Shown: positions 22,203 to 42,323 of the stretch, in pieces | Layout of the letters: the number at the start of each line of letters is the position of its first letter | Numbering within the stretch: position 1 is the first letter of the stretch | NCBI GenBank assembly: GCA_003452935.1 | Contig: DMMY01000016.1 | Span: 142,009-206,008 of the forward strand | DNA from: Elusimicrobiota bacterium | GTDB lineage: Bacteria > Elusimicrobiota > Elusimicrobia > UBA1565 > UBA9628 | Reading direction: 5' to 3' | Length of the DNA: 64,000 nucleotides | Notes under the pieces: model-generated | What the model was told of the DNA's origin: nothing | Seen by the model: only the letters and a program-made list of their open reading frames with translations | The model's database searches: none | Translations under genes and position numbers: made by a program

Positions 22203-23167
22203 CTTTCGCTATTTGCGCGGAATCTTCGCATCAACGAGGCATGGGGCATATTTTCCGCGCGATAAACTTTCACTCATATCTGAAGGCGAAAGGGGAAGCC
22301 TGCGTTATCTTAACCAACCCCCATGCGCCGGCTGAAGACGCGCTGCGCAAGAACAGCGTTCAATTCGACTTGATAGACCTTAACAACGAGCAAAGCCAAT
22401 GGGAACGCATCCTCATCTCCCGTCACAGAATCGATGTTTGGATTAACGACCGCCTAACTACCGGGAAAGCTCACGCCTTAAGGGTCAAAAACGCAGGCGC
22501 CAAACTAATCACGATGGATGATCACGGTCCCGGAGCAGATTTGAGCGATCTTCATGTGGCCAGCCTATCTTTCTCAGAATCAGAGCCACCACGAGGCCGC
22601 AGGGTGCTGCAAGGCATTGATTACCTGATCTTAAGTCCGCACATTATCGCGCGGCGCCGCCTCCGAAGGACTCTGGAACGGATCGTTATTTCCTTGGGAG
22701 GCAGCGATACATACGGCGTCACGGTCAAAGTCGCCATTCTCCTAAGAGAGCTGAACTATTCGGCCGTCATTCATCTCGGCCCCGCATTCGCCCACCACGA
22801 TGCGCTCGCGGCATTGCTCGGAGACAATCTCTCGGTAACGGAAAACATCCCATCGTTGGTTGATTTGTTTTCAGATTTCGATCTAGCCATCACAGGTGCC
22901 GGCGTGACCCCTTTCGAAGCCAACGCGGCGGGCTTGCCGGCACTAGTCATAGCCAACGAGCTCTTTGAAATACCCAACGGCAAGCTGCTGCATGCCGCAG
23001 GATCCGCTTTTTTTATGGGCCATCACAAAAACCTTTGCCGTCATCAAATGCAGGCAGGACTTTCCTACGCCGCCGCCCACCTCGAAGAAATGAGCCGACG
23101 AGGCATGGAACGATTTTCTCCTCAAACAGCTTTCGAGAGAATATTTAAAGAAATTAAGAATATATAA
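22199..23167 (+). CDS. PseG-like UDP-sugar hydrolase (GT28 C-terminal-like)
   Basis: N-terminal AICAESSHQRGMGHIFRAINF resembles PseG (R.DSSSQIG.GH). C-terminal ISLGGSD...ITGAGVTPFEANAAGLPALVI block. Confidence 0.55.
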   Translation: MTFAICAESSHQRGMGHIFRAINFHSYLKAKGEACVILTNPHAPAEDALRKNSVQFDLIDLNNEQSQWERILISRHRIDVWINDRLTTGKAHALRVKNAGAKLITMDDHGPGADLSDLHVASLSFSESEPPRGRRVLQGIDYLILSPHIIARRRLRRTLERIVISLGGSDTYGVTVKVAILLRELNYSAVIHLGPAFAHHDALAALLGDNLSVTENIPSLVDLFSDFDLAITGAGVTPFEANAAGLPALVIANELFEIPNGKLLHAAGSAFFMGHHKNLCRHQMQAGLSYAAAHLEEMSRRGMERFSPQTAFERIFKEIKNI

Positions 23168-24711: not shown

Positions 24712-26454
24712 ATGAACCCCACGCCCGATTCCGAAACCGAACTTGATTTGACTCATTACATGGATATCATCCTGCGCCGCCGATGGATCGTCCTCTCGGC
24801 GCTCTCCATCGTTTTTATCTCAACGATGCTCGTGACTTTCACCACCAAACCAATCTACCAGGCCAGTTCCTTGCTTGTCATCGAAAAGGAACGCAGTTCC
24901 AGCAATGCGGTCTACACCAACGGCGCCCTCATTGAAAGCAGCAATGACGACTATTACCAAACCCAATACAAACTGCTCCAAAGCAAATCCTTAACGCAAA
25001 AGGTTTTTGACGATCTGCACTTATCCAATGCCGCCGATTTCGCGGACCCTCGCGGCATAGAGAAGTTCCGCAACGCCCTGACCATTTCCCCGGTCCTGCG
25101 CAGCCGTTTGGTCTATGTCCGGGTGCAGTCCCACAATCCACATCTCGCCGCCAAAGCCGCCAATGCCCTCAGTGAAACCTTCGTCGATCAAAATCTCTCC
25201 AATCAACTTTTCATCTCCAAGGAAGTCTTGCAGGCCCTACAAGTCAATGAAGACTCCCCAAAAGCCCGGCAGATGTACGAAGCCCTGCCCGCCGTCGTCA
25301 GCAACCCGCTCATCCAAACCCTTAAAGGCGAACACGCCAAGCTCGAGGCGCAATGCGCGGAAATGTCACAAAAATTCACGGCCAAATACCCAGCCATGAT
25401 CGCTTTGCGATCCAACCTGAACGCGCTCAAGGGGCAAATTCAAGCTGAAACAGACAAAGTCGTGCAGAGCCTGAAGACCGAACTGTCCGGCCAGTTGCGC
25501 GGGAATAATGTTCGCATCGTTGATTCTGCCACTGTTCCGGAGTCTCCGATCAAGCCAACAAAACGGACGAACGCTTTGCTCGGGCTTATCGGCGGCCTAG
25601 GCCTGGGCTTGGCCCTGGCATTCCTGGTGGAAATGATCGATCAAAGCGTTCGAACCCAGGAAGATATAGAGGAAAAGCTCGGCCAGCCCTTCCTTGGCAT
25701 AATTCCTCAATCCATTATCCGGAACAACACAATCATTGAGGCGATGCTGGCCAAAGAACTTTCTCTTACCAGCGAGGCCTTCCGCAACATGCGAACCATG
25801 GTGGATTTCGCCGGCATTGGCGGAAAAGCAAAGACCGTCCTGCTGACATCGACGGTCCAGGGAGAGGGAAAGACTTATATAGCTTCCAACTTAGCCGTGG
25901 CCTGGGCCCAGATAGGAGAAAGCGTTTTGCTCATTGACGGAGACCTTCGCCGCCCAAAAATCCACAAAGCCTTCCATCTCTCGGCCGAAAAAGGTCTCAG
26001 CGATTTCTTGGTCTCAGGCCGCCACACCGAAGACGTGGCAAACCTAGTCCAACAATGCGTGGTTCCCGGCTTATCTCTCCTGCCCTGCGGCCAACGCCCC
26101 CCCAATCCATCAGAACTGCTCAACACTCCCCGCTTGGGCGCGATGATCGCCTGGGCGCAGGAACATTACGACAGAGTCGTCGTCGACAGCACACCCATGT
26201 TTCCCATCAACGACACATTGCTTTGGGGCCGCCATATCCCCTCCAGCATCTTCGTCGTTCGCTACGGCGAGACCCGCACCCCGCTTATTCGCAGCGCCTG
26301 TCAAAAACTCATCACCAGCAGCATCAAGCCACTCGGCGTCGCTATCAACGCGGCAAAAGCCGGCGGGCTATCCTACGCATCCTACGGCTACTACTATCAA
26401 CAATACTATCAGCAATACCACCAGGAATCGGAGCTCAGCAAAAAGTCCACATGA
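24712..26454 (+). CDS. wzc: Polysaccharide co-polymerase / tyrosine autokinase (Wzc/BY-kinase family)
   Basis: N-terminal Wzz region with TM; Walker A QGEGKTYIASNLA; DGDLRRP; C-terminal Tyr cluster YASYGYYYQQYYQQY. Confidence 0.85.
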   Translation: MNPTPDSETELDLTHYMDIILRRRWIVLSALSIVFISTMLVTFTTKPIYQASSLLVIEKERSSSNAVYTNGALIESSNDDYYQTQYKLLQSKSLTQKVFDDLHLSNAADFADPRGIEKFRNALTISPVLRSRLVYVRVQSHNPHLAAKAANALSETFVDQNLSNQLFISKEVLQALQVNEDSPKARQMYEALPAVVSNPLIQTLKGEHAKLEAQCAEMSQKFTAKYPAMIALRSNLNALKGQIQAETDKVVQSLKTELSGQLRGNNVRIVDSATVPESPIKPTKRTNALLGLIGGLGLGLALAFLVEMIDQSVRTQEDIEEKLGQPFLGIIPQSIIRNNTIIEAMLAKELSLTSEAFRNMRTMVDFAGIGGKAKTVLLTSTVQGEGKTYIASNLAVAWAQIGESVLLIDGDLRRPKIHKAFHLSAEKGLSDFLVSGRHTEDVANLVQQCVVPGLSLLPCGQRPPNPSELLNTPRLGAMIAWAQEHYDRVVVDSTPMFPINDTLLWGRHIPSSIFVVRYGETRTPLIRSACQKLITSSIKPLGVAINAAKAGGLSYASYGYYYQQYYQQYHQESELSKKST

Positions 26455-28181
26455 CGTTTCGCCTTCCGGCGCCAATCCTCGAAAGCCTCTTCCTTTTTGC
26501 CGTAATTGTCGGGCCATTATTCTTCGGCGCCGTTGAACCGTGGTCATTTGCCGTTCTATGCCTCGCGATTAACACAACGGTATTTTTTTGCGCATTACGC
26601 GGCCTGCCGAATCTTGAGCAGCCTATCTACCGGACGTTGCTCCCTGGCATCGCGGCCTTACTTTTCATAGGCGTGATTCAACGCTTCAATCCCCGCTCGA
26701 TCCTCGAGCCTGCCTCTTGGCTGCCCGCAAGCACAAGTCCTAATGCCACCGGTCGCGCTTTATGGCTATGGTCGACCTACGCAGCCGCTCTCTGGTGCGC
26801 GCCCCAGGTTTTCAATGGGCTGGCCGCCGTGAAACGACTCCTGGCTACGATATTCGCCCTAGGCTGCACGCTCGCTGTCGTCGGAATCATTCAAAAGGCC
26901 CAATATCCAGAAATGTATGATAACTTAATCTACGGATTACGCCGAGCCCCATTTCCTCTCCAACCCTTCGGACCTTATTACAATAAGGATCACGCTGCTT
27001 CCCTGCTGATCATGACCATATTCTGCGGGGTCGGCTTGCTGTGGAACCAAGCCAGCGTTATGCAAGAACGCCCCAAGCAACACGATTTATTCAGCATCGC
27101 AGCCATCCAAACCATGATCATTTTTGGCATTGGGATCAGCCTTCTCGGCCTCCTCCATACCCGTTCAAGAGGCGCACTGGCCGCCCTTTTAATAACAGGG
27201 CTCGCTCTTGGCATACACTCCTTTTGGGGGAGAATTTATCGAACCTTTTTATTCATTCCAGCCTTGGCCCTTGTTCTATTCGCTATAACGACAAGCCCCA
27301 TCGCCGACAAATTCTCAGGTTCGCTGATCAAGACAGCAATTGCCGAACGAACCATGTTCTATCGCTCAGGAATGCTCATCGTCAGCGATTTCCCATTAAT
27401 GGGCACAGGCCTAGGCACTCTCCAACAGGCCTACTATCCATATCAGCCGAGAGAAGTACGGGGAATAATGGAGCACATCCACTGCGACTGGCTGGAGCTC
27501 TTAATCCAGGCTGGACTTGCAGGTTTTACTGCATACATATTGGGCTTTGCACTCTTCTTGCGCTCCTGCATAAAATCTCCGCCTCATATCGCTAAGCGAG
27601 AAAACCCGGGGCTTGCCCAAGGAGTTGGCGGCGGCGCCATTGCCTTCGCAATTCACGGATGCATTGATTTCGGGTTCCAGACTCCGGCCAATGCATTGAT
27701 CTTTTTCCTTCTTCTCGCGGCATTAGGCATCTTGTCTAGCCGCAACGAGGACTCCCAGAAGCCTCGCCTGCCCCTTTTCTCGAGAATTCCACAAATCGCC
27801 ATCGCCGCCGCGGCCCTCACCCTAGTCCTTTTCTCCGTTCCGCCGGCCGTTGCATCCTGGCACTACTTAAACCGAAAAGCGGATTCTCCGGAATCCTGCG
27901 CAAAACGTCTCTCCCTAGCTATTGAGCTGGACGCCCAGCCAAAATATCATTATGAACTTGCGCGACACCTCGCATCTTCGATGCCTCAACAAATAGACGG
28001 GCGCATCCAAATACTCCGTCAAGCCCTTGCGCATGCCAATTCGGCCTTACTGCTCGATCCCGCAAGCCCGAACCTCCGCAGGCTTCAAGATGACATCCTT
28101 TGGCGCTTAGGCCGCTTGGCGGACGGGAAAGACCTCCGCAATCAAGACGATCGTTTAGAGGGCGGCAATGGCGAATACTAG
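26450..28181 (+). CDS. O-antigen ligase/polymerase-family membrane protein (Wzy_C domain) with a C-terminal TPR-like tail
   Basis: Many TM helices. LLHTRSRGALAAL loop typical of the Wzy_C/WaaL family. ATG at 26450 overlaps the wzc stop (ATGA). Confidence 0.6.
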
Positions 28182-29106
28182 CCGGCCGCTCGTAACAGTC
28201 GTCATCAATGCCTATAATGGCGCGCGCTATCTGCGGGAAGCAATCAATTCCGTTTATGCTCAAACTATGCAAGACTTCGAGATCGTACTCTTCGATGACG
28301 CATCAACTGATGAAACCCCGAAGATTGCCGGAGAATTCGACTCAAGATTGAGATATGCCCGTTGCGACCACAATATTCCTCTTGGAGAAGCCCGCAACAG
28401 GGCCCTCGAAATATCGCTTGGAAAATACGTGAGCTTTCTAGATCAGGATGACCTCTTCCTGCCGAATAAGCTATCGCTTCAGGTCGCGGCTTTTCAAGGC
28501 GACATAGCTTTGGTATTCAGCAATTCCATCCGGTTCTGGGAGGAAACCGGCAAGGAAGCCATACACTACACGTCTCGACCTATGGATGGGAATGCCTTCA
28601 GGGCCCTATTGCGCTGGTATTATCTGACCATCAATACTGTGACCATTCGCAAGGATGCCTTGCCCGATGACCGGAACTGGTGGTTTCCTCCAACATTTAG
28701 GATGTGCGAGGAAACCGACCTGTTTTTGAGACTGGCATACCAGCATCCCATAGCATATGTAGACGAGCCCTTAGCCAAGTACCGAATCCACGGCTCAAAT
28801 TTTTCACTTTGCCATCGCGAATATCTCATATCTGAGCAAAACGCCATTCTTGAGAGGCTTCACGGATTAATCCCAGGATTCGCATCCCGCTACGCGGATG
28901 AGGTCGCGGTGTTTAGGGCTGAAATTAAGAGAACCGAAGCGCAGATACATTGGAAGAAGGGGCATTGCCGCAAGGCTTGGAAAAACTACCTTGAAGGATT
29001 ACGCCTCAACCCGCGGCCGGTATACCTGGCGGAAATGTTCTTAAGCGCCATTTTCCCTTACGAGGTCCTGCCGGCGATACGCGAATTCATCGGGAAACCC
29101 ATTTGA
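28168..29106 (+). CDS. Glycosyltransferase family 2
   Basis: VTVVINAYNGARYL ... FDDASTD ... FLDQDD (DXD) motifs. Confidence 0.8.
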   Translation: MANTSRPLVTVVINAYNGARYLREAINSVYAQTMQDFEIVLFDDASTDETPKIAGEFDSRLRYARCDHNIPLGEARNRALEISLGKYVSFLDQDDLFLPNKLSLQVAAFQGDIALVFSNSIRFWEETGKEAIHYTSRPMDGNAFRALLRWYYLTINTVTIRKDALPDDRNWWFPPTFRMCEETDLFLRLAYQHPIAYVDEPLAKYRIHGSNFSLCHREYLISEQNAILERLHGLIPGFASRYADEVAVFRAEIKRTEAQIHWKKGHCRKAWKNYLEGLRLNPRPVYLAEMFLSAIFPYEVLPAIREFIGKPI

Positions 29107-29175: not shown

Positions 29176-30978
29176 TTGGAAAGAAAACAATTGGGTCGGT
29201 TCCTAATTACCACAGCCCTGGAAGAAGCCTGGCGCGATGATGTGCCGGTTTTATTCCTCGGGGAGTGGTGTCTATCCTACTCCCGCAAGGATCGATGGTC
29301 AAAAATCGATGCGGAAATATTGCCTTATCACTGGGATGACCGGGCCAAGTTATATGCCGATTATAAAAACCTCCTGGCTTTCCATGAGCGCTTATTGGCC
29401 AATTTGGCCGGACAGCTCAACGAGATTCACGGCGTCGACCACAGTCTTCGCTACTGGCGCATATTGATCGGCCCGTGGTTGGGGGATTTCATCCACATAC
29501 TATTTGATCGCTGGACATCCATTCACCAAGCCATTGCTCAGCATGTGCTGTCCGGAACTCTTATTCTAACCGGCAAAGAAGAAACCTTGATTCCCAATGA
29601 CATGGCCGACTTCAGCCGCCTCTTGATCCGAGATGAATGGAATCATCACCTCTACGCCGCCATTCTACAGCGCTTTACGACGGTTCCCTGCAGCAAAAGG
29701 GCACGGCAAGACATTGCAAGTTGGACTCCACATGCCGTTCCAAACACATCCTGGAAACAACTTGTCAAGCGCACAATGGCCGACTGGTATGTCCGAGGAG
29801 CACGGTTGCTGGCTAGTGACCAAGACGCATTCCTTCTAGCCACCTACTTGCCCTTTCGCGACGAGATGAGAATGCATCGACGTTTGGGGCAATTGCCGCA
29901 ACCCTGGCGTTCGACATCTCCGGCAAAAGCCTCCGTTGACGAACACCGACGGCAATGGGTTGTCGCAGGAAACAGTCTCTCGCCATTCGAGACATGCGCG
30001 CGCGCCCTAATCCCATCTCAAATACCGGCGATATATCTAGAAGGCTACAGCCAACTGGTTATGCAGACGACTGTTTTACCTTGGCCTAAAAAACCCAAGC
30101 TAATCTGGACCAGCAATGCCTTGACTTCCGACGATGTTTTTAAAGCCTGGGCAGCGGACAAAATTGAAAAAGGGTCCCCGTTGGTGGTCGGGCAGCATGG
30201 CGGTCATTACGGCATAGGCCGTTGGTCGTTCCTTGAAGATCATGAAATAGCCATCAGCGACCGCTACCTCAGCTGGGGCTGGGCAGAGCCGGGCCATCCC
30301 AAAATAAAACCAGTCGGACAATTGAAGGCAAAACGGCCATTAGGCATTCGACATGCGGAAAAACCGGTCGCATTGCTGGTCACGTCCAACCACCCACGAC
30401 AAAGCTATCGGAATCACAGTTCAATGATCTCGCGCCAGTGGAGCGATTATTTTAAGGATCAGAGAATATTCGTCGCGCAATTACCCGCGGAGATTAAAGA
30501 GGCGTTGATTGTGCGCCTATATTGCCATGATTACGGCCGCGACCAAGCGGCGCAATGGCATGATCACTTCCCGGCCCTGCGCCTTGACGCCGGCCATTCC
30601 AACATCATTAGGTTGATTGCCCAATGCCGCCTTTATATCTCCACATATAATTCCACGACTTTCCTGGAATCGTTCACCATGAATATACCTACGATCATTT
30701 TTTGGAACCCAAATCATTGGGAACTGCGCGATTCCGCCATCCCTTATTTCGAAGAGCTCAAGCGCGTCGGCATCTTTCACGAAAGCCCGGCATCCGCCGC
30801 ACGTCACGTGACCGACATATGGGATCATGTCGATGAGTGGTGGTCCTCCGCATCCGTCCAGCGGACTCTCAAGCAATTCAAGGCGCGTTACTGCGATCTG
30901 CCCAATAATCTATTGGAACGAATTGAGCACGCATTGCGGGAAGTCATGCCCATTTCAGAAAAAACCGACTCATGTTAA
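29176..30978 (+). CDS. Large uncharacterised protein, probable GT-B-fold transferase of unassigned family (hyp-A)
   Basis: No recognised family. The C-terminal region (IIRLIAQCRLYISTYNSTTFLESFTMNIPTIIFW) resembles the donor-binding tail of GT-B enzymes. Shows weak similarity to the 33777 ORF. Confidence 0.3.
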   Translation: MERKQLGRFLITTALEEAWRDDVPVLFLGEWCLSYSRKDRWSKIDAEILPYHWDDRAKLYADYKNLLAFHERLLANLAGQLNEIHGVDHSLRYWRILIGPWLGDFIHILFDRWTSIHQAIAQHVLSGTLILTGKEETLIPNDMADFSRLLIRDEWNHHLYAAILQRFTTVPCSKRARQDIASWTPHAVPNTSWKQLVKRTMADWYVRGARLLASDQDAFLLATYLPFRDEMRMHRRLGQLPQPWRSTSPAKASVDEHRRQWVVAGNSLSPFETCARALIPSQIPAIYLEGYSQLVMQTTVLPWPKKPKLIWTSNALTSDDVFKAWAADKIEKGSPLVVGQHGGHYGIGRWSFLEDHEIAISDRYLSWGWAEPGHPKIKPVGQLKAKRPLGIRHAEKPVALLVTSNHPRQSYRNHSSMISRQWSDYFKDQRIFVAQLPAEIKEALIVRLYCHDYGRDQAAQWHDHFPALRLDAGHSNIIRLIAQCRLYISTYNSTTFLESFTMNIPTIIFWNPNHWELRDSAIPYFEELKRVGIFHESPASAARHVTDIWDHVDEWWSSASVQRTLKQFKARYCDLPNNLLERIEHALREVMPISEKTDSC

Positions 30979-32537
30979 TGTCCTCCATTCGCTGGCGCTT
31001 TGCCTTCACCATTGGAAGCAACCTAATACGCGGTTCGATCAGCTTTATAACCGGAATACTGTTGGCCCGCTACCTAGGCCCGGCCTCGTATGGCAACATG
31101 GCTTTTCTGCTGGGCACTTTTCTGGGCATTCGGCAATTATTGGATATGGGAAGTTCATCGGCGTTCTTCACATTTTTGTCGCAAAAACCACGATCCAGAC
31201 GGTTCGTCATGTCATATTTTGCCTGGCTGGCCGCGCAATTCCTCATCACATTAGGGGTTATCGGGTTACTATTCCCATCCCGATGGATTGCTACTATCTG
31301 GCATGGAGAGCAGCGCGGATTGGTTCTTCTGGCATTTACCGCCGCCTTCATGCAAAACAGCATATGGCCGGTTATCCAGCAGGCGGGAGAATCCCAGCGG
31401 CAAACCGTTTGGGTACAGGGCATTAGCACGGTTGTCGCGGGAGTTCATCTCTCAGTAGTTATTTTGCTCAGGAAGTTTGGGATTCTGCAGCTCTACGCCA
31501 TTTTCGCCGCCATTTCTCTAGAATATTTTCTGGCCGCTGTTGTTGCGCAGAAGTGGCACAATTACGCCAAGGAGGAAACCAGCGGTTCGCCCCACATAAC
31601 ATCGGAGCCGTTATTCGGGAAATACCTAAATTATTGCTCGCCCCTAATACTCTACTCATGCATCGGTTTCGCCTACAATTTCGCCGACCGCTGGCTTCTC
31701 CAAAAATACGGCGGGGACGTTGAACAGGCCTATTACGCAGTCGGCTCCCAATTTTCCGCCATCGCGCTCATCGCCACATCTTCCATCCTCCGCATTTTTT
31801 GGAAGGAGATTGCCGAGGCGCACCACCTTGCAGACCACGCGCGCACAAAAACGCTTTACCAGAAGGTTTCCCGGCACTTATTCTTTGGCGGTGCGATGAT
31901 CGCCGGATTTTTCATGCCCTGGGCCGAAGATTTGCTGCGCCTGGTTCTCGGCGCATCATATGTCGGTGGAACAACGACCATGGCAATTATGTTTCTCTAC
32001 CCAGTCCACCAATCCATGGGGCAAATTGTCAGCACCATGCTTTTCGCGACAGAACGGGTTTCATTGCAGGTCACAACCGGCATCATCTTCATGATCGCAA
32101 GCATGGGAGCGACTTATCTTGTGCTCGCGCCTGGGAATGCAGTCATACCGGGCCTGGGACTGGCTTCAATGGGCTTGGCCATCAAGATGATTATGCTGCA
32201 GCTTATACAAGTCAATGTCCTTGCATACATGATCGCCCGCATCTGGAAATGGCCATTTGACTGGGTCCATCAACCCGCAAGCCTGCTGGGATGCCTGGGT
32301 TCGGGATGGATAGCCCATGCCGCGGCCATGCGCATGGACATCGGCGCAACTTCACTGCCCGGGCTCATGGGATTGGGAGGGGGCATATACCTGCTGATGA
32401 TGGCGACTTTTGTCTGCGCTATGCCGTGGCTGGCTGGGCTGACTCGGGATGATTTGATTTCCAACGTAACGAATATTTGGGGAAAAGCAGGATGCCGCTG
32501 GAAAATGGGATGGTCCAATACCCCAGACAGCAAGTGA
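30972..32537 (+). CDS. wzx: Wzx-like oligosaccharide flippase (MOP superfamily)
   Basis: Polytopic protein; N-terminal SNLIRGSISFITGILLARYLGPASYG typical of the polysaccharide-biosynthesis (PST) family. Confidence 0.7.
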   Translation: MLMSSIRWRFAFTIGSNLIRGSISFITGILLARYLGPASYGNMAFLLGTFLGIRQLLDMGSSSAFFTFLSQKPRSRRFVMSYFAWLAAQFLITLGVIGLLFPSRWIATIWHGEQRGLVLLAFTAAFMQNSIWPVIQQAGESQRQTVWVQGISTVVAGVHLSVVILLRKFGILQLYAIFAAISLEYFLAAVVAQKWHNYAKEETSGSPHITSEPLFGKYLNYCSPLILYSCIGFAYNFADRWLLQKYGGDVEQAYYAVGSQFSAIALIATSSILRIFWKEIAEAHHLADHARTKTLYQKVSRHLFFGGAMIAGFFMPWAEDLLRLVLGASYVGGTTTMAIMFLYPVHQSMGQIVSTMLFATERVSLQVTTGIIFMIASMGATYLVLAPGNAVIPGLGLASMGLAIKMIMLQLIQVNVLAYMIARIWKWPFDWVHQPASLLGCLGSGWIAHAAAMRMDIGATSLPGLMGLGGGIYLLMMATFVCAMPWLAGLTRDDLISNVTNIWGKAGCRWKMGWSNTPDSK

Positions 32538-32587
32538 TCAGGGGAAAATGAAGATTCGACCACGGCATTAAAATTGATATATAATTC

Positions 32588-33748
32588 TTGCAGCAATTAC
32601 CCCGCAATATTGTCCGATTCAAAAATTATGGCCACGCGCAGATGGGAAATATAACAACCTTTCTTCCGGATCATTTCAAGAACCTCATAAGACCTTATTA
32701 TTATTGGCTGAAGCGGCATGTGCGCAAATCTTTTAAATCCAGCATAGTCGCCCTGCCGTCTCACCTGAACATGGCATTTACGATGAAATGCCAAGCTGCC
32801 TGCCCGCACTGCTACTTCTTACAGGAAAACACAGCTACCTTCAAACGCCCTGAATTATTAACTCAAAAATTCCTGACCAACATGCTGGGGTCGCCGTTTT
32901 GCAAAAATATAAGGACCATGACGTGCGGCGGGGGAGAAGCCCTTCTGCATCCAGACATTCTCTCACTGGTTAAAATTCCCTACCAATTCGGCATCACGCA
33001 AATTCAGATCGTCTCCAATGGCATCACCCTGCAGGACAAGGATATCGTACAGAGGATAATTGCCAATAAAAGTTTCAACACTTTGCAGGTTTCCCTCGAC
33101 GCCGCGAATGCCGATGATTTCATGCTTAAGAAAGGCATCACGAAATGCGATTTCAATAGCATATTGAAGAATATAGCCGCGATCACGGCCTCATATGAAA
33201 AAGGGGGACATTTTTCCACAGGGCTGAGCTTCGTGATCAACGCGCGCAATATCAGGGACCTGTCCCAAATGATAAAATTGGCGGAGGAGCTAAATGTCGA
33301 TTATTGTCATTTCGCCACTCAACAAGTTACCAGGGACGACAACTCCTCAACCATCGGACAAACGGTCGAAAAGGAACAACCAGAATACGATAATGTTCTT
33401 CGACAAACCAGCTACCAAGTAGACATCAACATCCAACCGCCACTTCAGTCCAATTTCCTTCACTACTTCTGCGCATCCCTGGCACATCATCTATCATTAA
33501 GCCCTGAAGGACGGCTTGCTCCGTGCTGCCACATCCCTTGGGACAAGAAATACGGGATGTTCGATTCATGCCGCGAAAACCCGATAAACAATCCGGCAGC
33601 GGTCAATTTACGAGACATGTTCATCGCCGCCAAAAAAGAGGGCAACCCCGTGCTGCTGCCCCAAGAATGCAAAAAATGCCCGCGCCGGCTCAAGGGATAT
33701 TTCCATTTTTCACGACATCGCCGGAAATGGCAATTTATCCCATATTAG
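32588..33748 (+). CDS. Radical SAM / SPASM-domain protein no. 2
   Basis: CQAACPHCY (Cx3Cx2C) plus a C-terminal Cys-rich region (CCHIPWD...DSCREN...ECKKCPRR). Confidence 0.75.
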   Translation: MQQLPRNIVRFKNYGHAQMGNITTFLPDHFKNLIRPYYYWLKRHVRKSFKSSIVALPSHLNMAFTMKCQAACPHCYFLQENTATFKRPELLTQKFLTNMLGSPFCKNIRTMTCGGGEALLHPDILSLVKIPYQFGITQIQIVSNGITLQDKDIVQRIIANKSFNTLQVSLDAANADDFMLKKGITKCDFNSILKNIAAITASYEKGGHFSTGLSFVINARNIRDLSQMIKLAEELNVDYCHFATQQVTRDDNSSTIGQTVEKEQPEYDNVLRQTSYQVDINIQPPLQSNFLHYFCASLAHHLSLSPEGRLAPCCHIPWDKKYGMFDSCRENPINNPAAVNLRDMFIAAKKEGNPVLLPQECKKCPRRLKGYFHFSRHRRKWQFIPY

Positions 33749-33776
33749 CGCCAACTATATTTATATTGTTTGAGGA

Positions 33777-35768
33777 TTGAGTACGCGAGCCCCTCCCCAA
33801 GCAGACAGCGACATCCGCGCTTCTAATTTGCCGCCAGACGCATTGAGTTGTCCATTGACAAAGAATCCGACGGGCATTTCCATCACCGTTTGGGATTCGG
33901 CTGTCGAGCCAGCCGAATGCGAAGGACTTATTTATACATGGAATGGCTACGCGGAGAATGCTCACGTCCATTCCTTATTCCGGCAGGTCGACATCCATGG
34001 CGAACGATTGCGGCGAAAATACTTAACCTGGATACACGATTTTGGCGAGAGCAGATTCTCAAATAAACGCATCATTGATCACCTAGCGATTGAAGATGGA
34101 TTAAGTTACTGGTGGTTGACCCTCCTGTCCGAGCAGAGCCAGTATAAATCGCCTAGAATCAAAGATGCCATTCGCCTTTTGGCCTTGGATGAAATCGTCA
34201 ACGAGCTCAAGCCAGTCAAAGTCAAGCTGGTTAGCCCAGACTCAAGCTTGAGCGAATCACTCCAGGGCTTATGCCTCAAATTGGACATTGCCTATACATG
34301 GGAACGAATTGCGGACCAGCACCCGCGCTCCTTAAACCTTAAAGCCGCCTGCCATGCATTACCGCAATCAATTAGGGCGCTCGCAACCCTTATTCGCTAC
34401 CTGCATATTCGATGGCCGCTAAGGCGGGCAGACAAGCACAACTGGTTCAGCGGCGACAAGGCTTTATTTTTTTGCGCATTTTTCGTCTATATGGACCCTC
34501 AAAATGCCCAAGCAGGACATTTTCATTCCCATTATTGGGAAGGATTGCATGCCCTGCTGGAGAGACTGAACCTCAACGGAAACTGGCTTCAGCTTTACAA
34601 ATCAGCCGAAGGAGGGCCGTGCCCCCAGACTGCAATTGATTGGGTCAATCGCTTCAACCGGCAACGCCAGAAAGAGGGGTTTCATGCCTTCCTTGACGCT
34701 TTTTTATCTTGGCGCATTGTATTACGCGTCTTGAGAGGTTGGCTCAATCTCATTGTCATCTCGCGGCGTCTTCGAAAACTCAAAGACGCATTCACGCCAA
34801 GAGGCACGCATCTCTCCTTGTGGCCCATTATGAAGGCGGATTGGTACGCCTCACTGCGCGGCCCTGACGCTATCAGCAACCTGCTCTGGGTTGAACTTTT
34901 CGATGCCGCCCTGCGAAACATGCCCCATCAAAAAAGAGGGATATATACCTGCGAGAATCAGGCCTGGGAACGCGCTTTGGCGCATGCTTGGCGCAAGCAC
35001 GGCCATGGCCAATTAATCGCCGCCGCGCATTGCACCATTCGTTTTTGGGATCTACGTTACTTCAGCCACCCTCGCACAATTACTTCAAAGAGGGAACCCT
35101 ACCCCAAACCAAATCCAGATATCGTGGCTGTCAACGGCAAGGCCGCGTTAGACGTCTGCCTCAATGCGAATTTTTCAAAAGATACGCTCGTTGAAAGCGA
35201 AGCCCTGCGTTACGGCTACCTGACGAATCTAACGAGAACATACCCATCCCAGGTAAAGAACGGCGGGCCCCTCAAAGTCCTCATCCTGGGCGATTATCTC
35301 CGTTCAGGAACATCGAAAACGTTGCGGCTGCTTGAAGCTGCAGTTCCACTCATAGCCATCCCTATCACTTTCACGATGAAACCGCACCCTAACTGCCTAG
35401 TAAAATCAACGGATTACCCATGCCTCAAATTGAAGATAGTCATGGACCCCTTGAAGGACATTCTGCGCGACTTCGACATTGCCTATTCCAGCAACATGAC
35501 CGCAGCGGCGACAGACGCCTATCTTGCGGGGCTGGGGGTGGTGGTGATGCTCGATGATAAGGAACTTAACTCCAGTCCATTGCGCGGCCAACCCGGAGTG
35601 CAATTTATCGACACGCCAGATAGGCTTGCCAAGTCGCTCATGACGTTTTCCCCCGCTGAATCTCCACGTCCTGATTCAAGCCTCTTCTATTTTCTAGATC
35701 AACGCTTGCCCCGATGGGAGAAACTGTTGCTCGCACCAAGCCCGCAAGAACCGCGAGACACCAATTGA
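33777..35768 (+). CDS. Large uncharacterised protein, possible GT-B-fold transferase (hyp-B)
   Basis: No recognised family. C-terminal DIAYSSNMTAAATDAYLAGLGVVVM is GT-B-like. Start uncertain. Confidence 0.3.
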   Translation: MSTRAPPQADSDIRASNLPPDALSCPLTKNPTGISITVWDSAVEPAECEGLIYTWNGYAENAHVHSLFRQVDIHGERLRRKYLTWIHDFGESRFSNKRIIDHLAIEDGLSYWWLTLLSEQSQYKSPRIKDAIRLLALDEIVNELKPVKVKLVSPDSSLSESLQGLCLKLDIAYTWERIADQHPRSLNLKAACHALPQSIRALATLIRYLHIRWPLRRADKHNWFSGDKALFFCAFFVYMDPQNAQAGHFHSHYWEGLHALLERLNLNGNWLQLYKSAEGGPCPQTAIDWVNRFNRQRQKEGFHAFLDAFLSWRIVLRVLRGWLNLIVISRRLRKLKDAFTPRGTHLSLWPIMKADWYASLRGPDAISNLLWVELFDAALRNMPHQKRGIYTCENQAWERALAHAWRKHGHGQLIAAAHCTIRFWDLRYFSHPRTITSKREPYPKPNPDIVAVNGKAALDVCLNANFSKDTLVESEALRYGYLTNLTRTYPSQVKNGGPLKVLILGDYLRSGTSKTLRLLEAAVPLIAIPITFTMKPHPNCLVKSTDYPCLKLKIVMDPLKDILRDFDIAYSSNMTAAATDAYLAGLGVVVMLDDKELNSSPLRGQPGVQFIDTPDRLAKSLMTFSPAESPRPDSSLFYFLDQRLPRWEKLLLAPSPQEPRDTN

Positions 35769-35877: not shown

Positions 35878-38505
35878 ATGCCAGAACGCCCTCATGTTTC
35901 GATATGCATAGTGGCCACTCTGTGCGTGATCTGGAGCGCTGGCAGCCAAGCGGTCGCTCAGACTTCTGACGACTTCATCCAGGTAAAAAATCCGTTCTCC
36001 TTGCGCCTGGACAAAGTGCCGGCCCAGAGAATTCCCATTGGAGCTCCGGATGATTACAAGCCGAATATCGCTATTCTTCCAAGCGGGGAACTGCTGCTGG
36101 TCGCCTTCCACCGCTACACGACGGGCGCTGTATTTTACGAAGAACAGCTCCTGTTCCGGTCAATCGACCACGGCATCACTTGGTCAGGACCACAAGCGCT
36201 CGGCTTGTTAGGACGAGAGCCTTACCTGACGGCGCTTTCTGACGGCACCCTGTTCATCACCGTACATTTGTTGGAGGGAGACTTGCGCAACCCAGACACC
36301 TACACACATAGTTACATCCATCGGTCTATAGACAACGGTCAGACATGGACGACATTGCGCATCGGCCCAGAGGGTTTCCCGGAAAAAGCCGTCACCCATA
36401 CCAGCCGGCAGGTGCTTGAGCTTCCTGATGGGACCTTATTGCTCGGAGTAGATGCCGTAGGCGGCCAAGCTTATCTCTGGCGTTCCAACGACCGGGGCGC
36501 GACCTGGGACCGTTCCCAGCTTGTGGATAATGATGGCTTTCATAATACCGCTTCCTATTTCGGCGAGGCGCATCTCTGGCGAGCAAAATCCGGCAAGCTT
36601 TTCAATATTGTCCGCGTCAACAGCGCGGTATATCCGATTCCCGGCCGCGATCCGCCGGAAGCCGCCTGGGACCATGCCAATCATTTGATCGTTTATGAAT
36701 CGACCGATACAGGCCGAACCTTTCGCAAGCTTATAGATTTAGGCGATTATGGGGAAATGTACCCTTCTCTCCTGCGGCTCACCAGAGACCGGTTGTTGCT
36801 GACTTTCACAGTCCGGGCAGAGAAGATTCCTTTAGGCGTCCAAGCAGTGCTCGGTTCCGAGACCGAGGACGGATTTGTGTTTGATTTTTCGCGCGACCGA
36901 TTCGTTCTCGAAGAAAAAACTCCTCCAGATCAAGACAGCGGCGGAGGATTCGGCCCGAGCCTTCGGGCGGGCGACGGCAAGATTGTGACGGCATATTCCT
37001 ACCGAGGGGCGGATGGCTTGTCCCATGTCGAGGTCGTCCGCTGGCCATTGGCGGAGGACGACTCCGATGTCCCGCTTCCTCCATCTAACCTTTCCGCAAG
37101 CTCGGAAGATGCTGGCCACATCAGATTGCATTGGCAAATCTCTCCATCTACGGGGATCACGCACTACAACATCTATCGGGACACCGGCGCCGGGACGGTC
37201 GATTACTCCATGAGAATCGCCAGCGTTCCCGCCTCGGTCTGTGATTTTTCGACAGGCCCATTTACCCTATCGGAGTCTTACAGATTCGCCATTCGGGCCG
37301 CGGGGCCGTTCGGCGAAGAAGTCAACACAAGCGTCGCGGCCTCGGCAACCGCACAATCTCATCCCTCGGCCATCACGGCCGCAATCAAAACGCCGGCGGC
37401 GGGCAAGAGAATCTGGGGCAATCGGGTCACTATTATCGCGGAACCGGCAGCCGGCCAAGCTGCAAAACTGAAACAAATCCTATTCCAATATCGAGCTTCA
37501 ACCGGATCAGTCTGGTCGCATATCACGCCCCCCGACTCGACCTATCCCAATCCAAGGATGACAGCTCCCTATATCACGCAGTGGGATGTTACCTCACTGA
37601 GCACTGGAAATTACGAATTGCGGGCACTCGCCAGCAGTTTTGATGGCGAAACGGATGAGGCACCCGCGACCGTGACGATCGCGGTTGATTCCTTAGATTT
37701 CGACATCAATGAACGCCTAATAGCCGGAGGGCCGTTGGTGAAAGAGCAAAAAATTAACAATTTCATCTCCAACACGGTCCAAGCCGCCTCTGCAGGCTCG
37801 CCGCTATTCTCCCAGGTCGACATCCCTCCCGGAGCCCTGGATGGTTCGACCGTAACGATAACAATCACGAACACACCAGCAACCGTGCCTGCGACACCCA
37901 GGGGAACTGAAAGCATCGGCGCTTTCGCCGAAGTGGCGCTTTCGAATGCACAAAGCAATCTTTCCATGGGCAAGACTGCTGTCGTCTCTCTAGGTTTTCC
38001 TGATGACAACGGCGATGGGATCGTTGACGGGACCATGGTCAGGACGGATCGCCTCGCCATGTTCTCGGCGCCGACCGCGGCCGGTCCCTGGCAAAGGGAT
38101 GTAGCGACCACGATCGATACAGCAAATAAGATGGCGAGAGGCGTCACCTCGCATTTCAGCTTCTTCGGCCTGTTCGCTACGGCATCAACAAGCCTGGACT
38201 CTGTCCGGGTTTATCCAGTGCCCTTCGTACCGAACAACAGTTTAAGCGACGATGGGGTTCCATACTCCGCCGGCAACGTCAATTCCGGGATAGTTTTCGA
38301 TAACCTTACGGATTCGGCCATAATTGAGATTTATACGGTGACGGGACAACTCGTGGCCCGGCTGAACTCAAGCCATACCAACGGCAGGCTTCAGTGGGAT
38401 ATTAAAAACGATAGGGAAACGGATGTCGCTTCCGGCGGCTATATCGCGCTCATCAGCAATGGGGGAGATCCGCCCATAGCCAGGAAGCTGCTGATCATCA
38501 AATGA
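35878..38505 (+). CDS. Secreted BNR/Asp-box sialidase-like glycosidase with an FN3 domain and a T9SS C-terminal sorting domain
   Basis: Signal peptide; RIP motif (AQRIPIG); four Asp-boxes (SIDHGITW, SIDNGQTW, SNDRGATW, STDTGRTF); FN3-like LHWQISPSTGITHYNIYR; C-terminal ~80 aa ending ...GGYIALISNGGDPPIARKLLIIK, typical of type-A T9SS CTDs. Confidence 0.7.
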   Translation: MPERPHVSICIVATLCVIWSAGSQAVAQTSDDFIQVKNPFSLRLDKVPAQRIPIGAPDDYKPNIAILPSGELLLVAFHRYTTGAVFYEEQLLFRSIDHGITWSGPQALGLLGREPYLTALSDGTLFITVHLLEGDLRNPDTYTHSYIHRSIDNGQTWTTLRIGPEGFPEKAVTHTSRQVLELPDGTLLLGVDAVGGQAYLWRSNDRGATWDRSQLVDNDGFHNTASYFGEAHLWRAKSGKLFNIVRVNSAVYPIPGRDPPEAAWDHANHLIVYESTDTGRTFRKLIDLGDYGEMYPSLLRLTRDRLLLTFTVRAEKIPLGVQAVLGSETEDGFVFDFSRDRFVLEEKTPPDQDSGGGFGPSLRAGDGKIVTAYSYRGADGLSHVEVVRWPLAEDDSDVPLPPSNLSASSEDAGHIRLHWQISPSTGITHYNIYRDTGAGTVDYSMRIASVPASVCDFSTGPFTLSESYRFAIRAAGPFGEEVNTSVAASATAQSHPSAITAAIKTPAAGKRIWGNRVTIIAEPAAGQAAKLKQILFQYRASTGSVWSHITPPDSTYPNPRMTAPYITQWDVTSLSTGNYELRALASSFDGETDEAPATVTIAVDSLDFDINERLIAGGPLVKEQKINNFISNTVQAASAGSPLFSQVDIPPGALDGSTVTITITNTPATVPATPRGTESIGAFAEVALSNAQSNLSMGKTAVVSLGFPDDNGDGIVDGTMVRTDRLAMFSAPTAAGPWQRDVATTIDTANKMARGVTSHFSFFGLFATASTSLDSVRVYPVPFVPNNSLSDDGVPYSAGNVNSGIVFDNLTDSAIIEIYTVTGQLVARLNSSHTNGRLQWDIKNDRETDVASGGYIALISNGGDPPIARKLLIIK

Positions 38506-39586: not shown

Positions 39587-41071
39587 ATGACCATACGCGC
39601 TCTTTCGGCATTATTTTTCTTGCTATATGGAATTCTCATGCCCATGACGGCAAGCGATTTCATCGCGGGAAATCTGGTCGCCTCCCTCGCCATGATAGCA
39701 TCATCGTTTGTCCTTGCTGCACTTCTATGGTCCGGCCGTGCGCTCTTGCTCAATATTCTTATTGCCTTTTATGTATTCAGGGTCTACATGACACGCCCCT
39801 ACATCAATCTCTTTCTTCCAAAACTCAGGGGGGGACAATACGCCTACATCTGCTCTTTAAACTCCTACTACAACCCTTCTGATTCATCAGTGGTCTACCT
39901 AAGTCTGCTATCTCTGCTGTCGGCCTGGTTAATCGGACTTTATATCGCAAAACCAAAGCCTGTCGTCATGGGTTCCCCGCCTTGGATTTTCCGTCAAATC
40001 GATGAGATCGTCACATCCGCAAGCTGGCCATTCTGGACGGCATGGATATTGCTGACAATTTTAAATTACAAATCCCCTTCGGACACCTGGCAGGGCATCG
40101 CAACCGGAGAGAGTTCTACGCTTTTCGCCTTTGGACTCTTCTCTATGGCGACAATAAATGTCGTCTGTCTATACGTGCTTCTGCTTTCTCGCCAAACCCG
40201 AGCCAAGCCCGCGTCGATCATGTTAATTGCTCCCATATTGATTTCCTCTGTTTTCCGCAGTGCGGGAGGAAGCCGTAGCGCCATATTTTTTGCCGCCATT
40301 TTTGCCGCAACTTATTGGCTGTTTCTCAACCTGAACAAACGCGTCAGCCGTGGCGACCTAGCAAAAACAATCTTTATAGCTCTTCTTTTTCCGGTTATAC
40401 TTTTTGCCGGGCTTTTCGCCCAATACCTCAGGCCTTTTCTGAGATCAGGCACAACCAATGAAGCCATATGGACAATGAGCGTAGAAGGATTGGATATTTT
40501 CAATCCCGACAATCCGATAATCAACTCACTTTATTTCGGCCTTACCGAACTGGCGCATAGATTGAGCAGCCTAAAAGCTCAATTCCTAATACTCAATGAC
40601 CACTTCATCCATCCCCCATGGGCAAGCTACAACCCGCTGCAGGCGTTCATGCGGATCATCAATGATCTTCTCCCGGGAGACATCTTCCCGAATATGCTGA
40701 CGATCAATCAGCTTTTTGATTACATATATTCCGATAGCCATGTAATCTACAACAGCGAATCTTGGAGCATCCAGGGGACGCTTTATCTTTACTGCGGCCT
40801 TTGGCTGTCCCCTATTGTCGTATTCTTCATGTCATACCTAATTAGAAGGAACTATCAAAAACTCCAAACCCTCGCCACAGCCTCTCCATCCTTTGCGGCT
40901 TTCTTTATTTTGCTCTTTAACGATATTCTCGAAAATGGCACGATCGAACGCATCGTTCCTGTTGATATCGTTCGACCGATGGCAGGATTCGTAGCATTCA
41001 TATTCTTGGTCAAAATCTTCCAGGCCTTGTATCCTCAAAGAAAAAAGTCGCCGCTGTCGATGACTCATTAA
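39587..41071 (+). CDS. Polytopic membrane protein, putative Wzy-type repeat-unit polymerase
   Basis: About 11-12 hydrophobic helices with a large periplasmic loop; no soluble domains; sits among GT genes. Confidence 0.4.
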   Translation: MTIRALSALFFLLYGILMPMTASDFIAGNLVASLAMIASSFVLAALLWSGRALLLNILIAFYVFRVYMTRPYINLFLPKLRGGQYAYICSLNSYYNPSDSSVVYLSLLSLLSAWLIGLYIAKPKPVVMGSPPWIFRQIDEIVTSASWPFWTAWILLTILNYKSPSDTWQGIATGESSTLFAFGLFSMATINVVCLYVLLLSRQTRAKPASIMLIAPILISSVFRSAGGSRSAIFFAAIFAATYWLFLNLNKRVSRGDLAKTIFIALLFPVILFAGLFAQYLRPFLRSGTTNEAIWTMSVEGLDIFNPDNPIINSLYFGLTELAHRLSSLKAQFLILNDHFIHPPWASYNPLQAFMRIINDLLPGDIFPNMLTINQLFDYIYSDSHVIYNSESWSIQGTLYLYCGLWLSPIVVFFMSYLIRRNYQKLQTLATASPSFAAFFILLFNDILENGTIERIVPVDIVRPMAGFVAFIFLVKIFQALYPQRKKSPLSMTH

Positions 41072-41075
41072 TGAT

Positions 41076-42323
41076 ATGGAAGACGCTTCAATCAAGTTCG
41101 CCGCCTTAAGAAGGTCCCGGCTTCCGATCAAATTGGCCTTTTACGAACCCTATCCGATGGGCCTGGGCGGCAACTATCTCACCCAGCGCCTGATCCTGGA
41201 GCGGCTCAATCGCGCACGTTTTTTACCCATCGTGCTAGCTCCCAGGGAGGGGGCGGCGCTTGATCGATTTCGGACAATGGGGGTACAATGCATTGTGATA
41301 CCTCCGCCCGAAACCCTCAATCGCTATGGCGGCGCAGCTCTGAGAGTTGGGGCGTTCGAAAAGTTAAAAGCCGCCGCAGATCTGGTTAAATACAACCTTC
41401 GGTTGGCCAAATTCCTGCACGAGCGGAATATCGATGTCGTCTACGCCAATTGCGTACGCGCCCAACTGAGCATAGGCCTCGCCGCCCGGCTCGCACGGGT
41501 GCCAAGTCTTCTCTATATCAAAGGGGAATTGGCGAATCCGTTTATAGATCGCCTCTGTTTTTTAATGGCCTCAAGACTCCTGTTTTTCTGCGCTCAAAAT
41601 CGCGATGACCGATACCCTTTTTTCGTGCGCTGGTTTCGGCGCAAGATCGGCATCCTAAAAATCGGACTGGATCCAGCCTTGATAGCGGGAGCTCAAGGGC
41701 ATGATTCCACTGCTCTTCGCGAGGAACTCGATATCAGGCCTGACCGCATTAATACGGCGGTGTTGGCGCAACTCTACAGACCCAAGGGACAGCATCTTGT
41801 CATTGAAGCTCTCTCTAGGCTGGTAGCCGAATTCCCCCAGGTACGCCTGTATCTTTTAGGAGATCATGTCCTCGAAGAATACCGCAATTACAAGACAGAA
41901 CTCGAAGCCCTGATCGAGCGGCATGGTCTTACCCGGCATGTCCTCTTCACCGGATGGCGCAAGGACGCGCTGGAGATCGCCAACCTAATGGACATCGTCA
42001 TTCATCCTTCCTTGGCGGAAGGATTCGGCCGCGCCATCCTGGAATCGTTGGCCTTGGGCAAGCCCGTTATCGCGTCGGCTGTTGGCGGAGCAAGGGAAGC
42101 CATCCGTGATGGGCAAAACGGTTTCCTGGTGAAAGCCGGCGATGTCGATGCTATCACACTGCGATGGCGCGAGCTACTATCTAATGAGAGACTTCGGCAA
42201 AGGCTAGGACAGGAAGCCAAAAACACTGTATTTTCCGAATACTTGATAGACGACAAAGTGGCTCGCCTCGCTGACATATGGGCTGAGATGGCCTCGGGAC
42301 GAAAAAAAGAATGTGTGGCATAG
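41076..42323 (+). CDS. Glycosyltransferase family 1 (GT4-like)
   Basis: C-terminal EGFGRAILESLALGKPVIASAVGGAREAIRDGQNGFLV signature. Confidence 0.8.
   Translation: MEDASIKFAALRRSRLPIKLAFYEPYPMGLGGNYLTQRLILERLNRARFLPIVLAPREGAALDRFRTMGVQCIVIPPPETLNRYGGAALRVGAFEKLKAAADLVKYNLRLAKFLHERNIDVVYANCVRAQLSIGLAARLARVPSLLYIKGELANPFIDRLCFLMASRLLFFCAQNRDDRYPFFVRWFRRKIGILKIGLDPALIAGAQGHDSTALREELDIRPDRINTAVLAQLYRPKGQHLVIEALSRLVAEFPQVRLYLLGDHVLEEYRNYKTELEALIERHGLTRHVLFTGWRKDALEIANLMDIVIHPSLAEGFGRAILESLALGKPVIASAVGGAREAIRDGQNGFLVKAGDVDAITLRWRELLSNERLRQRLGQEAKNTVFSEYLIDDKVARLADIWAEMASGRKKECVA

Follow-up and report, generated by a model that had tools for sequence, protein, structure and literature searches.

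In a 64,000-nt stretch of an Elusimicrobiota genome (contig DMMY01000016.1; this whole stretch is the window below), two large open reading frames (ORFs), hyp-A and hyp-B, flank a flippase gene and a radical S-adenosylmethionine (SAM) gene within a surface-polysaccharide locus. Nonulosonic acids (NulOs), such as pseudaminic (Pse), legionaminic (Leg) and neuraminic acids, are displayed by many bacteria and archaea. We propose that hyp-A and hyp-B each serve as a dedicated transferase for ulosonic acids activated with cytidine monophosphate (CMP), a joint model to which we assign a probability of about 0.5, and that they are the best candidates for attaching the sialic-acid-like sugar to the cell surface. 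Taken singly, hyp-A is probably a nonulosonate transferase, and the chance that hyp-B is a CMP-sugar-acid transferase is slightly short of even. The genes and motifs central to this proposal are:

20470-21495, + strand, NeuB-family nonulosonate synthase (PF03102, E 3e-81)
21522-22202, + strand, CTP_transf_3 cytidylyltransferase, a CMP-sugar-acid synthetase (PF02348, E 1.9e-25)
22199-23167, + strand, candidate PseG-like nucleotide-sugar hydrolase (TIGR03590, E 1.4e-19; its 70.8 bits do not reach the cut-off of 153.55)
29176-30978, + strand, hyp-A, 600 aa, TTG start
30193-30204, + strand, Q340-H341-G342-G343 motif of hyp-A
30625-30705, + strand, beta4-helix-beta5 segment of the hyp-A C-domain, aa 484-510, RLYISTYNSTTFLESFTMNIPTIIFW
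30972-32537, + strand, Wzx-type flippase (Polysacc_synt; PF01943, E 3.8e-11), multiple transmembrane (TM)-like segments
32588-33748, + strand, radical SAM protein between flippase and hyp-B (PF04055, E 1.3e-11)
33777-35768, + strand, hyp-B, 663 aa, TTG start
35379-35390, + strand, K535-P-H537-P538 motif of hyp-B, directly after the second strand (530-535) of the C-terminal Rossmann domain

The Wzx gene shares its first 7 nt with the end of hyp-A; the remaining gaps between neighbouring genes are 28-69 nt. An earlier, sequence-only reading of this DNA had picked out these two flanking ORFs, and had argued that the locus makes a CMP-nonulosonate yet holds no recognisable sialyl- or Kdo-transferase. 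Both observations hold. The locus encodes a NeuB-family synthase, which scores under both equivalog cut-offs (NeuB, 336.7 against 399.65; PseI, 270.5 against 340.25), and the only cytidylyltransferase in the window. Pfam and NCBIfam scans of the ORFs in the low-GC island that contains the whole polysaccharide locus (~18-58 kb; GC 0.49-0.57, against 0.63-0.66 in the flanks) found no GT38, GT42, GT52, GT80, Capsule_synth, Kdo-transferase or Maf family, and E. coli K1 KpsC, KpsS, NeuS, NeuC and NeuE matched none of the window ORFs in phmmer searches. Nor was there a Pfam match to MAF_flag10 or to a tetratricopeptide repeat (TPR) plus glycosyltransferase-B (GT-B) architecture; the locus is of the Wzx/Wzy/Wzc polysaccharide type.

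Both proteins belong to curated families over their full length. hyp-A is a member of TIGR04331 ("LIC12162 family transferase"; 512.6 bits, cut-off 225, E 1.5e-153), with aa 10-584 aligned to profile positions 1-582 of 585. hyp-B is a member of TIGR04326 ("surface carbohydrate biosynthesis protein"; 496.6 bits, cut-off 250, E 8.8e-149), with aa 52-651 aligned to positions 1-600 of 602. Both families were defined on Leptospira interrogans O-antigen genes, and the window proteins lie well above the curated cut-offs. The proteins are therefore not "unknown", as first described, and 'novel' overstates the case because hyp-A and hyp-B belong to families already curated from the Leptospira annotations: they are ordinary members of named, uncharacterised families from an environmental Elusimicrobia metagenome-assembled genome (MAG). 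GenBank labels hyp-A (HAM35954.1) 'transferase', with a start 5 aa later, and hyp-B (HAM35957.1) 'hypothetical protein'; hyp-B is 100 % identical to a GenBank protein from an Elusimicrobia MAG. Neither matches Pfam at E<=0.01, and homologues of hyp-A carry PF27859, a recent Pfam model that the Pfam copy scanned here did not contain.

Both ORFs have TTG starts and uncertain 5' ends, which might suggest spurious or decayed genes. The data refute this idea and we give it practically no weight, given the full-length matches to curated hidden Markov models, homologues of conserved length in the hundreds to thousands (3822 cluster representatives among 1.84 billion match hyp-B at E<=1e-3) and confident structure models. 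The hyp-B start is set ~26 aa later by other gene callers, and its first 31 aa have a predicted local distance difference test (pLDDT) score <50; the true length is probably ~637 aa.

AlphaFold2 models built from 50-sequence alignments gave a pLDDT of 84.3 and a predicted template modelling score (pTM) of 0.86 for hyp-A, and 87.9 and 0.88 for hyp-B. In agreement with the GT-B-like C-termini suspected earlier, both are predicted to adopt a GT-B fold of two Rossmann-like domains around an interdomain cleft, with GT-B enzymes as structural neighbours, and a non-transferase fold was not seen in either model. The aligned lengths of 250-310 residues imply that both Rossmann domains are present. The rest, ~300 residues, consists of insertions, including a long helical hairpin in hyp-A (aa 56-122) and an extra N-terminal alpha/beta region in hyp-B (aa 35-220). 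Both proteins are predicted to be soluble. Searches of Protein Data Bank sequences with profiles of both families, including the diverse alignments A1-A4, returned noise only (a VHH antibody, a Fab and PUF3), and no solved structure was found for TIGR04331 or TIGR04326.

The GT-B fold also houses epimerases and hydrolases, including NeuC, LegG and PseG, which are steps of the same NulO pathways. One or both proteins, hyp-B especially, could therefore be nucleotide-sugar hydrolases or hydrolysing 2-epimerases, analogous to NeuC, LegG or PseG, that free a hexose for condensation by NeuB or an HpcH-type aldolase. We consider this improbable. The Foldseek ranking for hyp-B is in its favour, with NeuC, the epimerase domain of GNE, MurG and many 2-epimerases at the top. 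However, neither protein has a sequence signal to Epimerase_2 or NeuC, and an hhalign comparison of hyp-B with E. coli NeuC gave no alignment of note (P 0.57). No sequence or profile similarity was found between hyp-B and NeuC, UDP-GlcNAc 2-epimerases or PseG, and the likeness to NeuC-type enzymes is one of fold alone. At 663 aa, hyp-B is ~250 aa longer than these enzymes (NeuC-type length is ~370-390 aa), and both window proteins exceed NeuC or PseG in size by a factor of 1.6-2.

hyp-A and hyp-B share no detectable relationship beyond the C-terminal Rossmann domain, although a pairwise relationship had been suggested as worth testing. The hhalign probability was 0.85 % with close alignments and 10.7 % with diverse alignments, rising to 34 % (E 4e-4) for the C-domains alone. 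We attribute the C-terminal match to a shared fold and rejected homology at the family level. The proposal of tandem-module transferases of the KpsC type also fell: comparing N-half with C-half profiles detected no internal duplication in either protein, and each aligns to single-module GT-B structures. A KpsC or TagF assignment is not supported by the family models either: neither Capsule_synth nor Glyphos_transf gave even a weak match. The QXXXD motif is absent. Across 50 members per family, no Pfam family (Capsule_synth, Glyphos_transf, Glyco_transf_52 or another glycosyltransferase (GT)) matched recurrently at E<=5, and hyp-B had no weak NCBIfam match.

Conserved motifs were identified in alignments of 77-79 sequences with identities down to 32-38 %. 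In hyp-B, these comprise E393-N-Q-x-W397-E398, H410, H418 and E475-x-x-R478 and, in the C-domain, K535-x-H537-P538, T575, D580 and N598-x-S-P-L-R603. K535, H537 and P538 are invariant in the family alignments. The same K-x-H-P pattern occurs in E. coli K1 KpsC (VKVHPD and YKPHPD), KpsS (IKHHPM) and NeuS (IKPHPK), compared with MKPHPN in hyp-B. The His-Pro (HP) pair is the CMP-binding motif of Kdo transferases (PMC12887879) and of sialyltransferases (PMC5420450). In hhalign comparisons, the best local alignments of the hyp-B profile with the C-module of KpsC (P 0.006), the KpsC N-module (0.018), KpsS (0.028) and NeuS (0.035) all fell in the C-domain, and the HP of hyp-B was placed onto the HP of KpsC and NeuS. 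These alignments are singly insignificant yet concordant. HP by itself would also suit a hydrolase, as NeuC has HP after the equivalent strand (VVFHPET).

In hyp-A, the conserved positions are LFLGEWC (27-32), Q340-H341-G342-G343, W367-G368-W369 and R447. The QHGG motif is invariant or nearly so in 79 sequences down to 32 % identity, also in alignment A4; from this conservation it is a candidate active-site loop in the N-terminal half, with a possible catalytic role. The C-domain segment aa 484-510, with conserved R485, N492, T494, L497, E498, P505 and W510, is presumed to bind nucleotide and aligns with a segment of the KpsC N-module. This region also coincides with a weak similarity to NF046086 (the BFO_1060 family), which was matched by 33 of 50 TIGR04331 members (best E 5.4e-4, region aa 472-514). 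hyp-A itself matches over aa 472-514 only, and its score of 15.5 bits (E 0.007) is below the cut-off of 200, which indicates similarity and not membership. NF046086 contains Tannerella forsythia Tanf_01245/TFUB4_00887, which are genetically supported transferases of Pse or Leg derivatives with a TagB-like GT-B fold; BFO_1060 is identical to TFUB4_00887, whose deletion results in loss of the Leg derivative from the Tannerella O-glycan. Like the hyp-A family, the Tannerella enzymes are soluble GT-B proteins encoded directly downstream of CMP-NulO biosynthesis genes. Unlike hyp-A (600 aa, no HP), they are 442-445 aa and carry the HP motif.

Comparison with characterised enzymes shows several differences between both proteins and the known retaining families. 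KpsC (GT107), KpsS, WbbB (GT99), KpsS1 (GT118) and KrkA (GT140) are retaining Kdo or Pse transferases acting on CMP-sugars. In retaining transferases, QXXXD provides a carboxylate-binding Gln and a nucleophilic Asp (PMC12887879). In contrast to GT99, GT107, GT118 and GT140, hyp-A and hyp-B lack QXXXD, any Capsule_synth signal and tandem duplication: hyp-B has LGDY (LGDYLRS) and no conserved Gln where KpsC has GQVEDD, and the family alignment of hyp-A has no conserved copy in the C-domain. The HP feature of these GT families is present in hyp-B and absent in hyp-A. The overall predicted fold resembles canonical GT-B more closely than the modified form of the KpsC/WbbB-type families. The GT38 (NeuS), GT52 and GT80 sialyltransferases are recognised by a D/E-D/E-G motif together with HP and by their family models; they use a CMP-nonulosonate donor, and the HP context of NeuS is similar to that of hyp-B.

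Next, we examined the genomic context of homologues in 80 species-representative genome loci for hyp-A and 80 metagenome loci for hyp-B, with unbiased clustering of all 2084 neighbouring ORFs. Both families are tied to CMP-ulosonic-acid genes; co-occurrence with neuB, a check suggested earlier, was frequent for hyp-A and weak for hyp-B. A NeuB-family gene was within 10 kb of hyp-A in 54/80 loci, and in 32/38 (84 %) of the loci flanked by 9 kb or more at each end; in 52 of the 54 it was on the same strand, and its usual place was upstream. A CTP_transf_3 gene was present in 48/80. These loci span Leptospira, Chlorobium, Nitrospina, Legionellaceae, Bifidobacterium, cyanobacteria and the archaea Methanoregula and Methanocalculus, and a conserved cassette, found from Leptospira to Methanoregula and Bifidobacterium, has hyp-A as its final gene. 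Wzx was the commonest identifiable neighbour downstream of hyp-A (immediately downstream in 12/77 loci). The unbiased clustering also yielded a 598-aa cluster near hyp-A that we considered as a third GT-B family and rejected, since it is an ABC exporter.

For hyp-B, NeuB was within 10 kb in 4/80 loci, a weak linkage that arises largely because NeuB lies >10 kb upstream, beyond hyp-A. The link to activation is stronger: CTP_transf_3 was immediately upstream of hyp-B in 26/68 loci (38 %) and anywhere in the locus in 50/80. The commonest gene directly downstream was NTP_transferase (14/66). hyp-B or a distant hyp-B-like protein was found in 19/80 hyp-A loci.

In many genomes, the two genes belong to a recurrent supercluster, seen in L. 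interrogans (L038), Chlorobium (L024), Burkholderiales (L039) and many MAGs. Module 1 contains NTP_transferase, a CBS-GHMP kinase, a ~631-aa NeuB protein, SIS, a cytidylyltransferase (CTP_transf_3(b)) and an aminotransferase, followed by glyoxalase, methyltransferase, AP_endonuc_2 and two SDR genes, then hyp-A. Module 2 contains an FkbM methyltransferase, an HpcH/HpaI aldolase, a second cytidylyltransferase (CTP_transf_3(a)), a methyltransferase, GFO_IDH, SIS and a 2-hydroxyacid dehydrogenase, then hyp-B. Module 3 is a deoxyhexose module with a GT2 at its end. Each module closes with its own large transferase-like gene: hyp-A, hyp-B (both GT-B) and the GT2. This arrangement speaks for the transferase model. 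In Leptospira (L038), the pairing is the same as in the window, with NeuB, aminotransferase, cytidylyltransferase and radical SAM/SPASM genes followed further on by a LIC12162-type and then a TIGR04326-type gene. Compared with Leptospira and many other taxa, the window locus is reduced: it lacks the HpcH-aldolase/second-cytidylyltransferase module between hyp-A and hyp-B and has no module-2 biosynthetic gene at all. The window cytidylyltransferase is nearer to the 'a' type, which lies beside hyp-B elsewhere (E 1.8e-15), than to the 'b' type (E 2.4e-6).

Two side observations concern these modules. The module-1 cassette occurs upstream of hyp-A in L006, L007, L014, L029 and L032, for example, and also in Methanoregula (L044); its presence in bacteria and Methanoregula points to horizontal spread. 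The ~631-aa NeuB protein appears to correspond to the NeuB-phosphatase fusion of L. interrogans (PMC3438082). Module 2, which is not in the window, precedes hyp-B across phyla (e.g. L038:13500-21020, L083, L084, L007 and L159) and seems to build a second CMP-activated keto-acid sugar without NeuB.

The gene neighbourhoods bear on the hydrolase explanation in both directions. Canonical NeuC-like genes are rare (5/160 related loci), NTP_transferase is the commonest gene directly after hyp-B, and the pyruvate aldolase of module 2 would require a free sugar, all of which would suit an enzyme that releases one. However, a PseG-like gene already adjoins NeuB in the window and, if real, covers the GT-B-fold hydrolase step of the pathway; under the hydrolase explanation, three hydrolases in the window would serve one synthase. 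Both families also coexist with genuine NeuC-like genes: hyp-A directly follows complete Leg-type sets with a NeuC/LegG-like epimerase in L022 and L056 and shares L076 with a NeuC-like gene, as hyp-B does L100 and L159. In Herbaspirillum seropedicae AU14040, both families lie directly after a complete neuABC, and a role in N-acetylneuraminic acid (Neu5Ac) transfer was suggested by the authors (PMC6679464). LegG is encoded in the L. interrogans NulO cluster, to which the genes that open hyp-A locus L038 belong (PMC3438082). In addition, many cassettes combine a kinase with the NeuB fusion, a route that would need no hydrolase. The PseG-like gene, the coexisting NeuC-like genes, LegG, the kinase and NeuB cassettes, the lack of profile similarity to NeuC and the coupling to Wzx together favour transferases.

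Transferases need not use a CMP-sugar, and hyp-A and hyp-B could be genuine GT-B transferases with another donor, either an NDP-hexose or, in the manner of TagB/TagF, a CDP-activated alcohol phosphate. They would then attach the sugar adjoining the nonulosonate, or a phospho-substituent, and the true NulO transferase would lie elsewhere, such as in a GT4, a GT2 or an unannotated ORF. We regard this as unlikely but worth weighing. It would account for the missing HP motif of hyp-A and for two candidates beside a single CMP-sugar pathway in the window, it has a precedent in Bacillus subtilis SpsB (PMC7439481), and three island ORFs that match no Pfam or NCBIfam family could hide another enzyme. 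In contrast, a generic backbone GT would not be expected to show linkage anywhere near as tight as that of hyp-A to NeuB (84 %) and of hyp-B to an adjacent upstream cytidylyltransferase (38 %). No genes for the synthesis of CDP-glycerol or CDP-ribitol were found in the island. The three unmatched ORFs look like a polytopic membrane protein and two soluble proteins, with no glycosyltransferase family match. To our knowledge, GT2 and GT4 enzymes do not use CMP-sugars.

From the computed family membership, predicted GT-B fold, motifs and neighbourhood statistics, we infer transferase activity, a CMP-sugar donor, an acceptor and an inverting mechanism. In the CMP-ulosonic-acid model, hyp-A and hyp-B would be two unrelated, soluble, single-module GT-B glycosyltransferases, each enlarged by ~300 residues that are inserted or form an additional N-terminal domain. 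They would act at the cytoplasmic face in Wzx/Wzy-dependent assembly of an undecaprenyl-linked repeat unit. hyp-A would transfer the NeuB-derived CMP-nonulosonate (genes at 19.4-24.5 kb) to the lipid-linked repeat unit before flipping by Wzx. The K-x-H-P of hyp-B would hold the CMP phosphate, and in most genomes hyp-B would transfer the second CMP-activated keto-acid sugar made by the adjacent module 2. As module 2 is missing from the window, the one CMP-nonulosonate pool would have to supply hyp-B here as well, and the result would be a second NulO residue or linkage. The absence of QXXXD makes an inverting, sialyltransferase-like mechanism more likely than double displacement. Thus, the earlier idea of candidate nonulosonate transferases is kept in part: fold and context agree with it, and donor and transferase activity are predicted from them.

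Several points weigh against this model. hyp-A has no HP motif, and R447 occupies its position. All profile alignments to KpsC, KpsS and NeuS are weak (probability <6 %). The nearest structures of hyp-B are NeuC, UDP-GlcNAc 2-epimerases, LpxB and MurG, not sialyl- or Kdo-transferases, and NeuB is seldom close to hyp-B, as described above. Two candidate transferases stand against a single NulO synthase and a single cytidylyltransferase in the window. B. subtilis SpsB, which is TagB-like, has HP and DEG motifs and is encoded beside CMP-Leg genes, is dispensable for Leg transfer (PMC7439481). Finally, the searchable literature contains no assay or deletion of a TIGR04331 or TIGR04326 member, with a single, descriptive paper that mentions either family, and the Leptospira NulO paper does not discuss transferases.

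Both families are large and present in pathogens such as L. interrogans. Proof of CMP-NulO transfer by either would establish a new GT family; its genes would then mark genomes whose cell surfaces carry NulOs, and its enzymes would be new biocatalysts for non-mammalian sialosides. A broader and more doubtful reading, which we put forward tentatively, is that TIGR04331 and TIGR04326 are two unclassified families of CMP-ulosonic-acid GTs across bacteria and archaea, with TIGR04326 cognate to the NeuB-independent keto-acid sugar. If so, module 2 with hyp-B would be an undescribed CMP-sugar pathway plus its transferase in Leptospira, Chlorobium, Burkholderiales and many MAGs.

The island genes are essentially all on the + strand and, by the Pfam and NCBIfam scans, form a Wzx/Wzy-type surface-polysaccharide locus. 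Its dip in GC (window 18000-58000) is consistent with horizontal acquisition. The remaining annotated genes are:

start 18483, polysaccharide export protein
19366-20451, + strand, radical SAM/SPASM protein
start 23169, WbqC
start 23813, PIG-L deacetylase
24712-26454, Wzc-like kinase
~26454-28181, + strand, Wzy_C / O-antigen-ligase-like membrane protein
28168-29106, + strand, GT2 glycosyltransferase (PF00535, E 2.2e-27), directly upstream of hyp-A
35878-38505, + strand, secreted BNR protein, 875 aa
38502-39425, + strand, PorV/UPF0164-like outer-membrane protein
39587-41071, + strand, polytopic membrane protein, ~9 TM-like segments, no Pfam/NCBIfam match
starts 41076 and 47929, two GT4 glycosyltransferases
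42311-44242 and 46032-47954, + strand, two AsnB-type glutamine amidotransferases
starts 45204, 49825 and 54567, methyltransferases
start 49091, initiating phosphoglycosyltransferase
50543-52317 (starts 50543 and 51385), + strand, split transketolase
start 52310, PseC-like aminotransferase
start 56515, PseB/CapD-like dehydratase

The mechanically called 708-aa ORF at 26055-28181 (+) is over-extended and overlaps the 3' end of the Wzc-like gene; the Wzy_C start is probably near 26454. The three ORFs that match no Pfam or NCBIfam family are 39587-41071, 44215-45348 and 55336-56505 (all +). The first is possibly a second Wzy-type polymerase, and the other two encode proteins of 377 and 389 aa with no TM-like segments.

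The locus has two radical SAM genes, the first of which (19366-20451) also has a SPASM domain. This NeuB-adjacent gene is part of a cluster found again in the NulO cassettes of Leptospira (L038:5661-6638) and Chlorobium (56 % identity in L024), which suggests a radical modification of the nonulosonate or its substituents. The second, at 32588-33748, is a distant relative of the radical SAM/SPASM cluster (c27).

The 875-aa protein encoded directly after hyp-B carries a BNR_2 (sialidase-like) domain at its N-terminus, its C-terminal region matches the type IX secretion system sorting end of PorZ, and the PorV-like gene overlaps its gene by 4 nt. An exported sialidase-like protein within a nonulosonate glycan locus is unusual, and it did not adjoin hyp-B in the 80 other loci. 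AsnB homologues also recur downstream of hyp-B (a cluster in 17/80 hyp-B loci), a hint that amidated uronic or ulosonic acids may be part of these glycans. The split transketolase, with N-terminal and pyrimidine/C-terminal subunits, adjoins a TylF-like methyltransferase and is a possible source of a two-carbon unit in a sugar side chain.

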